A DNA stretch of 64,000 bases from a bacterium (lineage in GTDB: Bacteria > UBA10199 > JADFYH01), in assembly GCA_046346885.1 (NCBI GenBank), contig JAXMHI010000002.1, positions 216,768 through 280,767 on the forward strand, given 5' to 3'. How positions within the stretch are numbered: the stretch's first letter is position 1; each line of letters opens with the position of its first letter. The notes below the pieces were generated by a model that saw only the letters and a list, made by a program, of their open reading frames with translations, was not told where the DNA came from and ran no database searches. Below are positions 40,326-41,275 of this stretch, piece after piece. A program made the position numbers and the translations under genes.

Positions 40326-41275
40326 ATGACGGAGCTGGACTTAACAGTGAAGGCACTCAGGCAATACGTCTACTCCCAGCCAGATCAAGGCTCTTCCTCC
40401 CCAACAACGACAAGCCTTTTGCTCCAAGCGGCGTTGCAAAATCAGCAGTTTGGGATGGATGAGCTTTCGTTCAAATTGAACGGGCAATTGTATGGCTGTT
40501 TTCAATTCCCGAAGACGTCGTTTCGACCTTAGGCGGAGAACAAGCCTATAAAACCATGTCGCCAGGGCAACATGCTTGGCCCTCAACAGTCTCTACGGTG
40601 CGATCCCTATAACAACCCCATGGGCGGCAGCGGAAACGGTCGTTCCTCCATCACGGCGCCGTCTCCTTACGGTGATCCTTACGGCGGCGGTTATGGCGGC
40701 GGCGGTTGCGAATGATGGTTACGGCGGGTATGGCTACAACGGCATGAACCAGAACCAGCTTTCGTGGATCAGATGGAGCGGGCGCCAGCAACGCGACGGC
40801 ATCAACACCGCGCGTAGCCAGATCCGCAAGTACGAACAAGAGATGAAAGTGAAGATGAGCGCAGATCATGTTCATGATCCTCATGGGAGACGTGCCCGGC
40901 GCCATGCGAAATATCTTCGCTCAACGGAAAATCCTGAACTGCTTACACCAACCGAACTCAGTGCAGAAAGCTCGATGCGCGCCGCGAAGTCGAAAATTCT
41001 TGATGGCGATGGCCGCAAGCGCCCTCCTACGGCGCATGACAACACGAACGATCCCGCCGGAGCCGCGCGCGACCAGAACAAGCAGGCCAAGTACACCCAA
41101 TGGGTCTCCGTGACGACCCAGTTGATGAGCGAAGTGCAACAGACGGAACGTGAATTGCTGGATCTTCTTGAGCGAAGGTCGACGCAAACAGTCAACGACC
41201 TTTGGCTTCCGGCAGCGGTTCAAAGAGGCCGAGGCGAGAACCACGAGAACGGTCATCCAGGCCTTCCGCGGTTAA
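40326..41275 (+). pseudogene. Gly/Tyr-rich protein with needle-like C-terminus, multiply frameshifted
   Basis: Fragments across frames: MTELDLTVKALRQYVY.., YDPYNNPMGGSGNG..SPYGDPYGGGYGGGG, DGYGGYGYNGMNQNQ, AKYTQWVSVTTQLMSEVQQTERELLDLL, and the final frame KEAEARTTRTVIQAFRG with stop at 41273-41275. Confidence 0.45.

Follow-up and report, generated by a model that had tools for sequence, protein, structure and literature searches.

The needle subunit SctF of type III secretion systems (T3SSs) is a protein of about 70–90 amino acids (aa) that forms a single helix-turn-helix hairpin, and its conserved C-terminal helix, ending in ...(I/L)xx(F/L)R, is needed for polymerisation. The filament and tip proteins EspA, Bsp22, LcrV, IpaD and SipD, which are built on long coiled-coil hairpins, and the flagellar hook-associated proteins FlgK and FlgL are exported late, are chaperoned and use long terminal helices to assemble at the distal end of an axial structure. 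The last two form a paralogous pair whose expression depends on sigma-28, and flagellar genes under sigma-28 control are the late ones, for exported products. Among the components of T3SSs, those of the needle, tip and translocon evolve fastest and are the most difficult to detect. Here, we describe a gene for a Gly/Tyr-rich protein, referred to as the candidate, at about 40213–41275 on the forward strand of a 64,000-nucleotide stretch of bacterial DNA (contig JAXMHI010000002.1, positions 216,768–280,767; the whole stretch is termed the window), which is broken across the three forward reading frames and belongs to a T3SS locus. The candidate is one real, conserved gene that is intact in relatives, and its product stands about an even chance of being a late, chaperoned T3SS substrate.

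Deep-branching secretin-less T3SSs have been described as lacking the needle (SctF), the tip and the translocon (Abby & Rocha 2012, PMC3459982; Herrou et al. 2025, PMC12075869), and this apparent absence underlies both the label “needleless” and models of the origin of the injectisome from flagella. By gene content, the window locus resembles the “needleless” T3SS of Myxococcota (PMC3459982, PMC12075869): no secretin gene is present in the window, and FHA-domain proteins, a sigma-54 activator, a Ser/Thr kinase with PEGA domains and many TPR proteins accompany the T3SS core. It differs in having an SctF-like gene and genes for two hairpin proteins with TPR neighbours, and in having fliO, separate fliM and fliN genes and a FliG-like gene. 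A locus with flagellar-type features (fliO, separate fliM/fliN, FliG-like, FliA-like) and without a secretin gene in the window yet encodes an SctF-like protein and two helical-hairpin proteins that lie outside any database family.

Identification of the candidate gene

Between 40200 and 41440 no long open reading frame (ORF) is present, and a piece of the candidate is found in each of the three forward frames (numbered as the coordinate modulo 3). Frame 0 reads MTELDL...GMDELSFKLNGQ, further on ...CDPYNNPMGGSGNGRSSITAPSPYGDPYGGGYGGGG, and also ...LRCDPYNNPMGGSGNGRSSITAPSPYGDPYGGGYGGGG; frame 1 reads DGYGGYGYNGMNQNQ...AKSKIL...PPTAHDNTNDPAGAARDQNKQAKYTQWVSVTTQLMSEVQQTERELLDLL, and also DGYGGYGYNGMNQNQ ... 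QWVSVTTQLMSEVQQTERELLDLL; frame 2 reads LSEGRR...KEAEARTTRTVIQAFRG, followed by a stop codon at 41273–41275. A search with a crude splice of the three frames recovered 20 intact homologues of 294–394 aa (about 345 aa) at E-values from 3.5e-51 to 1.3e-27, in addition to the window's own mis-called 242-aa ORF. The C-termini of the closest intact homologues read ...KEADARTTRTVIQAFRG or ...LKEADARTTRTVIQAFRG; because 20 intact proteins match and the closest share this ending, the observed peptides are real, the agreement going far beyond what chance would give, and the C-terminal frame is right. The original prediction, made from the sequence of 40326–41275 without database searches, had pieced these peptides together across the frames, described a Gly/Tyr-rich protein and placed its end, read as needle-like, in the final frame; all of its peptides are found in the sequence, and the single gene, the Gly/Tyr-rich composition and the C-terminal frame are borne out, except that its frame 0 peptide has a Tyr where the sequence reads Cys. 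The Cys residues of these frames are themselves probably frame artefacts, since the family contains no Cys in 6839 residues.

A frameshift-aware dynamic-programming alignment, written for this task, was used to compare three homologues with the window DNA. It requires 7–9 frame changes in the candidate, where two had been implied, besides in-frame stops and short mis-framed stretches; the badly matching short stretches, such as KILDGDGRK against KILLAMGRK of the homologues, look like closely spaced compensating indels. The alignment of one homologue, P0004, starts at 40215, an AAGGAG ribosome-binding site is positioned at 40205–40210, and the distance to the promoter equals that of the homologues; the start is therefore probably near 40213, about 113 nucleotides 5′ of the ATG (40326) originally proposed, which gives about 350 codons, as in the homologues. 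The gene and the damaged regions are as follows.

40213–41275, + strand: candidate gene, about 350 codons, 7–9 or more frame breaks, start approximate (homologues, frameshift-aware alignments and family alignment A1)
near 40490–95, 40562–607, 40695–707, 40858–61, 40946–49, 40977–83 and 41167–218: frameshift sites of the candidate (frameshift-aware alignment)
37300–41250, no strand: indel-rich, low-quality patch holding the candidate (frameshift-aware alignment to L001 proteins)
about 16550–19200: second indel-rich patch, with secA, an argJ-like gene and the 5′ end of sctV broken

Origin of the frameshifts

Frameshifts in the neighbouring genes were counted with the proteins of L001, the syntenic locus of a close relative, as references. 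Within the patch, besides the 7–9 of the candidate, 6 were found in the fliN-like gene, 2 in fliO, 7 in fliP, 1 in fliQ and 3 in fliR; the flanking sctP, the fliM-like gene and the TPR gene at 41456 carry none, so the patch, at about 37300–41250, has sharp edges. In-frame identity to L001 is 55–65% within the patch, equal to that outside. In the second patch, the secA ORF ends at 16585 after the P-loop domain and the SecA_SW domain goes on in another frame (16810–17217), the argJ-like gene (about 17489–18763) is split across at least four ORFs, and the 5′ end of sctV/flhA is frame-broken (18827–19198 versus 19032–20948).

Because this second patch breaks housekeeping genes, which cannot be pseudogenes, the frameshifts are artefacts of sequence quality, that is, sequencing or assembly errors such as unpolished stretches, and represent neither gene decay nor programmed frameshifting; the latter was ruled out because the shifts are too many and are spread over six genes. 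A decaying pseudogene, with genuine frameshifts and ongoing loss of both the candidate and the T3SS export gate, would accommodate at least 7 frameshifts and in-frame stops within 1.06 kb and the breakage of fliN, fliO, fliP, fliQ and fliR, but it is very improbable: the damage is confined to a sharply bounded patch of about 3.9 kb whose adjoining genes are free of frameshifts, the in-frame stretches retain the same identity to L001 as the intact neighbours do, the frame changes mostly involve single bases with no large deletions seen, and the second patch hits secA and argJ, which cannot be dispensable. As the frame damage is a matter of sequence quality, resequencing, which had been suggested originally, is the right remedy. 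Both patches are flagged here as of low quality; the genes in them would otherwise be annotated as pseudogenes.

Architecture of the candidate protein

The 20 sequences of the candidate family were aligned (A1), and the structure was modelled with AlphaFold2 (AF2), the predicted local distance difference test (pLDDT) score being given as a measure of model quality. Three parts can be mapped onto the window.

40377–40560, + strand: small N-terminal alpha/beta domain, helix-strand-strand-helix (residues 50–108 of P0004, AF2 pLDDT about 88, mapped by frameshift-aware alignment)
40563–40760, + strand: disordered Gly/Tyr-rich linker with the motif GRSSITAP at 40638–40661 (AF2 pLDDT below 50)
40761–41272, + strand: C-terminal long alpha-helical hairpin domain (conservation, AF2 and homology to the 408-aa family)

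Throughout the family the N-terminus is rich in Ser, Asn, Gly and Pro, with S/T/N/P/G/Q accounting for 67% of the first 25 residues, and Gly makes up 12% of all residues. No signal peptide is predicted in A1 or in the families of the 408-aa and 193-aa proteins considered below (A2, 19 sequences, and A3, 5 sequences, respectively). Nearly all of the 56 invariant columns of A1 fall inside the C-terminal domain, the sequences being otherwise 44–64% identical. Modelled alone, this domain (157 aa) forms a long alpha-hairpin (pLDDT 84.6; helices 2–26, 30–72 and 85–156), in which a kinked first arm composed of the first two helices is followed by the conserved turn PPxAHDNTN(D/N)P and a 72-residue helix; the family ends in TVIQ[AS]FR[GA], which reads TVIQAFRG in the window. 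The sole hydrophobic stretch is the 19-residue IMFLILMGDVVGAVRAMVF in the first arm (Kyte-Doolittle 19-residue maximum 1.0–2.2), whereas the 408-aa family has none (maximum 0.2–0.85). Scans of the window ORFs, of C-terminal fragments, of P0004 and of 85 members of the wider superfamily against Pfam and NCBIfam gave no consistent family, and PDB sequence searches with the profiles A1, A2, A3 and A7 returned nothing relevant, with no solved needle, tip or translocator protein retrieved and A7 giving zero matches.

Relationship to the 408-aa and 193-aa proteins

Two further proteins of the locus had been proposed as paralogues of the candidate, giving three putative axial proteins with related C-termini, and they share a short motif with it.

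42117–43343, + strand: 408-aa Gly/Pro-rich hydrophilic paralogue ending in AIIRNIGK (hhalign of A1 against A2)
26898–27479, + strand: 193-aa Gly-rich protein with a weakly SctF-like C-terminus (match of the last 63 aa to PF09392, and a precomputed PF09392 tag)
40638–40661, 42750–42810 and 27172–27200: shared motif in the candidate, the 408-aa and the 193-aa protein, respectively

BLASTP comparisons among these three window proteins gave nothing significant. Profile-profile comparison with hhalign joined A1 to A2 over 111 columns of the C-terminal domain (probability 97.7%, E 2.3e-12) and over the last helix alone (E 1.8e-9); the joint alignment is convincing by eye, and a joint profile recovers both families. 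The candidate and the 408-aa protein are therefore paralogues. The helical part of A3, by contrast, gave no significant hhalign match to that of A1 or A2 (probabilities 0.2–2.5%), and with full-length profiles of A3 and A1 the Gly-rich R..M.GPGG motif was the only alignable piece. With enlarged profiles (164 C-terminal domains versus 10 needle-like modules) the last 35 residues, including TVIQ[AS]FR[GA], align weakly and in register with the SctF-like module of the locus (probability 26%, P 7e-4), smaller profiles giving nothing significant. Aligning the three C-termini, the check that had been suggested, therefore upholds the pairing of the candidate with 42117–43343 and fails to extend it to 26898–27479; the 193-aa protein appears to be at best a very distant relative.

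The match of the 193-aa protein to PF09392 is itself weak, its last 63 aa reaching E 0.027 and 15.1 bits where the cut-off is 29.4, and PF09392 gave no match to the C-terminal domains of the candidate and 408-aa families at E up to 10. All three proteins carry a short linear motif in their Gly-rich parts and have a TPR gene as a neighbour; one promoter type is, in addition, common to the candidate and the 193-aa gene. The motif is roughly G-G-[ST]-[LM]-R-x-[SNG]-[MI]-x-G-P-G-G; it was aligned between families by hhalign, and a loose regular expression finds it in 14/20 sequences of A1, 14/19 of A2 and 4/5 of A3. It co-varies by genome: GRSSI[TM][GA]P occurs in all three window proteins and GGR[AG]SI[VT]GPGG in the metagenome-assembled genome (MAG) that encodes P0004, P0023 and P0042, while other lineages have GGSLR[GS][NS]M. 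The motif may serve as a shared docking peptide, to which, for instance, the three paralogous TPR proteins could bind.

Promoter, terminator and sigma factor

The transcription signals of the candidate and the sigma factor of the locus are positioned as follows.

40139–40166, + strand: sigma-28-type promoter of the candidate, CAACTT-N15-CCGATAA, conserved in five lineages
26823–26850, + strand: second copy of this promoter type, 5′ of the 193-aa gene (pattern match)
41314–41351, + strand: intrinsic terminator of the candidate, with an 11-bp stem, a 12-nucleotide loop and a T-run
30109–31008, + strand: FliA/sigma-28-like sigma factor, whose orthologues in L001 and the distant locus L006 carry Sigma70_r2 and r4

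In an alignment of the upstream regions of four loci (A5), which are otherwise diverged, the only conserved block is AAGCAACTTAAG-N12-13-CCGATAA (GCAACT(T)-N15/16-CCGATAA), and L006 has GCAACT-N16-CCGATAA in the equivalent place; CCGATAA is thus invariant in five lineages. A -10 element of the GCCGATAA type and a -35 element at the right spacing are kept across the relatives. The -10 corresponds to the sigma-28 consensus, and the -35 (GCAACTT) departs from TAAA, the enterobacterial consensus; the classical pattern TAAA-N14-16-CCGATA has no match in the window. Two copies, and no more, of CAACTT-N13-18-CGATAA are present in the window, compared with 0.07 expected and with none of 100 shuffles reaching two; they precede the candidate and the SctF-like 193-aa gene. 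A CCGATAA 5′ of the 408-aa gene (42078–42084) was rejected as a third promoter, being kept in neither L001 nor L006.

Downstream of the gene, the segment 41276–41360 folds at -32.3 kcal/mol (z -2.56), and GC-rich hairpins with T-runs occupy the equivalent position in L001 and L006. Both the upstream motif and the terminator had been noticed in the sequence alone, and their conservation substantiates them. With a conserved promoter and its own terminator, the candidate is therefore a conserved, self-contained monocistronic transcription unit. The FliA-like sigma factor of the locus probably reads these promoters, so that the candidate would be co-expressed with the SctF-like gene, and by its likeness to sigma-28 genes the candidate may be classed as a late, exported gene.

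Other putative signals lie in the same region. A near-copy of the promoter, AACTTT-N14-CACCGATAA, is found at 29031–29057, directly 5′ of a gene for a 182-aa Gly-rich protein without database match (about 29083–29583), the real start of which is probably the ATG near 29083, since the listed TTG at 29035 overlaps the promoter. A block GATAGCATAA(C/A) is conserved in three lineages 5′ of the first TPR gene (window 41395–41425; L001 about 11165–11185; L006 about 11075–11090) and may be the promoter of the TPR–408-aa–TPR unit.

Conserved position in the T3SS locus

In gene order, the locus comprises sctV and genes for SctD-like proteins with FHA domains; next come genes for a 97-aa protein, the SctF-like 193-aa protein and a TPR protein of 146 aa, and sctJ; these are followed by genes for the FliA-like sigma factor, an SctI-like protein and a FliG-like protein, sctL, sctN, sctO, sctP, the fliM-like and fliN-like genes, fliO and fliP/Q/R, and then by the candidate, a 213-aa TPR gene, the 408-aa gene and a 236-aa TPR gene. 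After these, a sigma-54 activator with an FHA domain and the Ser/Thr kinase with PEGA domains are encoded on the opposite strand. Neither a secretin gene nor sctU was found within the 64-kb window. Three TPR proteins are relevant here.

41456–42097, + strand: 213-aa TPR protein, SycD/LcrH-like putative chaperone (TIGR02552 LcrH_SycD, E 1e-20; TPR Pfam matches)
43380–44090, + strand: 236-aa second SycD/LcrH-like TPR protein (TIGR02552, E 2.1e-18)
27569–28009: 146-aa TPR protein (CdsG, E 9e-9; SycD/LcrH, E 1.5e-11), followed by sctJ

Among NCBIfam models, TIGR02552 (SycD/LcrH translocator chaperones) scores best for each of the two downstream TPR proteins. The order fliR–X–TPR–paralogue–TPR–sigma-54 activator, where X denotes the candidate, is identical in L001 (close) and L006 (distant), the position of the 213-aa TPR gene being likewise occupied in both; the X protein of L006 matches the joint profile at E 4e-20 only. 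In all lineages examined, the candidate lies between fliR/sctT and a SycD/LcrH-like TPR gene. The order of the 97-aa gene, the 193-aa SctF-like gene, the 146-aa TPR gene and sctJ is reminiscent of yscE-F-G...J. Identities suggested by position and by the TPR neighbour, namely SctU, the gatekeeper SctW and SctX, were rejected, as there is no array of transmembrane domains, no HrpJ or TyeA match, and the size and fold are wrong.

Wider superfamily and fusions with a Sec signal

A profile of the C-terminal domain shared by the candidate and 408-aa families (A4) was searched against 1.84 billion representative proteins, yielding 122 proteins at E up to 1e-3, about 110 of which are credible clusters, of 220–450 aa with the domain always at the extreme C-terminus. 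All named matches are “hypothetical protein” entries from MAGs of uncultured bacteria (labelled Deltaproteobacteria, Kiloniellales or “bacterium”), and a Pfam scan of 85 superfamily members showed no recurring family. The 193-aa family (P0041–P0045) was not recovered by this search.

Sec signal peptides are present in 11 of the 85 distant relatives and in none of the A1, A2 and A3 sequences. In four independent clusters (P0090, P0054, P0129 and P0115, of which P0129 is MDX1400687.1 from a Kiloniellales MAG), a signal peptide is followed by a needle-like module of the 193-aa type, a linker and a candidate-type domain; the needle-like module is recognised at E-values from 2.8e-26 to 1.1e-6 with a hidden Markov model (HMM) and at 3e-25 and 9e-11 with BLASTP. 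The loci of these fusion proteins (L007–L010) are short contigs without T3SS genes, and their neighbourhoods are uninformative. No other observation argues as strongly as this Rosetta-stone arrangement for a physical partnership between the SctF-like protein and the candidate-type domain.

Possible function of the candidate

The reading favoured here, which we rate at roughly an even chance, is that the T3SS exports the candidate late and with the aid of a chaperone, as a substrate of the distal class (tip or translocator); it would be the partner of the 408-aa protein and tied functionally to the SctF-like protein. The protein is probably secreted. The candidate would be held monomeric in the cytoplasm by the adjoining TPR chaperone, possibly through the Gly-rich linker motif or the C-terminal helix, and would be exported late by the T3SS, after which the hairpin would join the SctF-like protein and the hydrophilic 408-aa paralogue in an assembly at the far end of the apparatus. 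In function, the candidate would come closest to a minor hydrophobic translocator of the SctB (YopD) type that has a tip protein or hydrophilic translocator as its counterpart, given the single conserved hydrophobic segment of the candidate and the hydrophilic character of its partner. The SctB translocators (YopD, PopD, IpaC and SipC, with the class II TPR chaperones SycD, LcrH, PcrH and IpgC) resemble the candidate in size (about 300–400 aa), in having a single, moderately hydrophobic segment ahead of long C-terminal helices, in an adjoining SycD/LcrH-like TPR gene, in a hydrophilic partner with its own TPR gene and in the location of the gene at the edge of the apparatus cluster. The candidate differs in resembling no translocator family by sequence or profile and in lacking a [PV]xLxxP motif, in the invariant Asp and conserved Arg held within its hydrophobic segment, in its Gly/Tyr-rich linker, small N-terminal alpha/beta domain and own sigma-28-type promoter, and in preceding its TPR gene instead of following it. 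As with FlgK and FlgL, the candidate and the 408-aa protein are paralogous, and sigma-28 dependence is predicted for the candidate; Pfam scans, however, gave no match of the candidate to EspA, LcrV, IpaD or the terminal domains of flagellar rod and hook proteins, and Foldseek gave no specific match.

Several results speak against this assignment. Searches of Pfam, NCBIfam and PDB sequences link the candidate to no characterised T3SS substrate, and none of the translocator and tip families (IpaB/SipB, YopB, IpaC/SipC, YopD, EspA/B/D, LcrV, IpaD) gave a Pfam or NCBIfam match in the window fragments, P0004 or the 85 superfamily members. The chaperone-binding motif [PV]xLxxP occurs in 1/20 sequences of A1, 0/19 of A2 and 0/5 of A3, and the scores of the 213-aa and 236-aa TPR proteins (73.9 and 66.3 bits) lie under the curated TIGR02552 cut-off of 104.8. 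Insertion of the hydrophobic segment into a membrane is doubtful, since it carries the invariant Asp and the conserved Arg and AF2 places it inside a coiled coil. Foldseek comparison of the AF2 models of the full-length protein and the C-terminal domain with the PDB returned only generic coiled-coil hairpins (best E 0.39–0.68; matches include Vipp1, SMC, IpaB 74–242 at E 0.7–0.8, YscO and ESAT-6), so structure comparison cannot discriminate between the hypotheses. The candidate-type domain is also not strictly T3SS-dependent, because 11/85 relatives have Sec signals and the fusion contigs are without T3SS genes. The candidate is not demonstrably a member of any known needle, tip or translocator family, and it is filed under neither needle nor translocator, since no test for membership of these two families places it there. 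A chaperoned T3SS substrate as such is a known kind of thing; the protein family, its domain, promoter and linker motif and the Sec-type fusions are undescribed in Pfam, NCBIfam, PDB or the literature searched.

The same evidence can be read in other ways. In the original prediction the candidate was the third member of a set of SctF/needle-family paralogues; its C-terminal helix, of needle type, would let it polymerise into an axial structure resembling a needle or filament. The likenesses to SctF needles (PrgI, MxiH, YscF, CdsF; PF09392) are several: an alpha-helical hairpin with a conserved Pro-containing turn, an ending of the ...IQxFR type (...RTVIQ[AS]FR[GA], resembling the ...AIRNFRS end of the 193-aa protein, itself a weak PF09392 match, with the last 35 residues weakly in register), a TPR protein encoded nearby, which parallels YscG and CdsG, the holders of needle subunits, and predicted co-regulation through the same promoter type, together with domain fusion, with the SctF-like protein. 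This interpretation is nevertheless rather unlikely, given that neither the candidate nor the 408-aa family matches PF09392, that hhalign of the family profiles and BLASTP are not significant, that the A4 search did not retrieve the 193-aa family and that the TPR neighbour is closer to SycD/LcrH than to CdsG. The family is also far from a small subunit: its members are about 345 aa long, and the hairpin of 157 aa, about twice as long as the roughly 80 aa of a needle subunit, comes after about 190 extra N-terminal residues; the candidate has no significant match to solved needle proteins either, and it resembles the SctF-like module of its own locus only weakly. Still less probable is a secreted effector or harpin-like helper that acts on the target cell and is not a structural part. 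Like the harpins of plant-pathogen T3SSs (HrpN, HrpZ, PopA), which are T3SS-secreted, heat-stable elicitors, the candidate is Gly-rich (12%), Cys-free and T3SS-associated, and its disordered Ser/Asn-rich N-terminus, the poly-Pro tract of the 408-aa paralogue and the monocistronic, late-type transcription unit would suit such a role; however, effectors usually evolve fast and the C-terminal domain is very strongly conserved, in every lineage examined the gene stays at one place within the core apparatus cluster, the domain is fused with the SctF-like module, and a dedicated translocator-class chaperone is predicted from TIGR02552 likeness. Harpins have no conserved helical-hairpin domain or dedicated TPR chaperone, and no sequence similarity to them was found.

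A third possibility, unlikely in our view, is a scaffold or rod-like polymer of the periplasm or envelope, for which the T3SS would deliver the candidate only across the inner membrane. The 64-kb window has no secretin gene, and the relatives with periplasm-directing Sec signal peptides (11/85) include all four needle-module fusions; a secretin may, however, be encoded elsewhere in the genome, and the Sec-type relatives stand in unrelated gene contexts. A broader conjecture, which we regard as unlikely, is that the 193-aa SctF-like protein, the candidate and the 408-aa protein form an unrecognised, highly divergent axial set of flagellum-like secretin-less T3SSs (of the “needleless” kind, as in Myxococcota-like predators) that assembles in the periplasm or envelope; the Sec-signal fusions would then build a related envelope structure without a T3SS, and the shared Gly-rich motif would be the docking peptide for three TPR chaperones. 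Should the SctF-like protein and the two hairpin proteins be distal components of the system, the HMMs A4 and A7 would allow “needleless” systems to be re-examined, and the fusions would be an instance in which axial modules of the T3SS type had been transferred to the Sec pathway.

Other features of the window

Flagellar-type parts occur in a cluster that otherwise looks non-flagellar: a FliG-like gene (31633–32589; TIGR00207, E 9e-9), separate fliM-like and fliN-like genes (the latter at about 37296–37722) and fliO (about 37818–38161). A 97-aa helical protein without significant family match is encoded at 26517–26810; its gene directly precedes the SctF-like one, a place that corresponds to that of yscE/cdsE. 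Immediately 5′ of the FliA-like sigma gene, 29604–29978 encodes a 124-aa Ser/Gly/Ala-rich protein with no family match; that it might be a FlgM-like anti-sigma factor is pure conjecture from its position. Over the last 6 kb of the window (58000–64000), GC content falls from about 0.53–0.57 to 0.33–0.38, with minus-strand ORFs at 58845–63985, and this part could be a foreign island or an assembly join.

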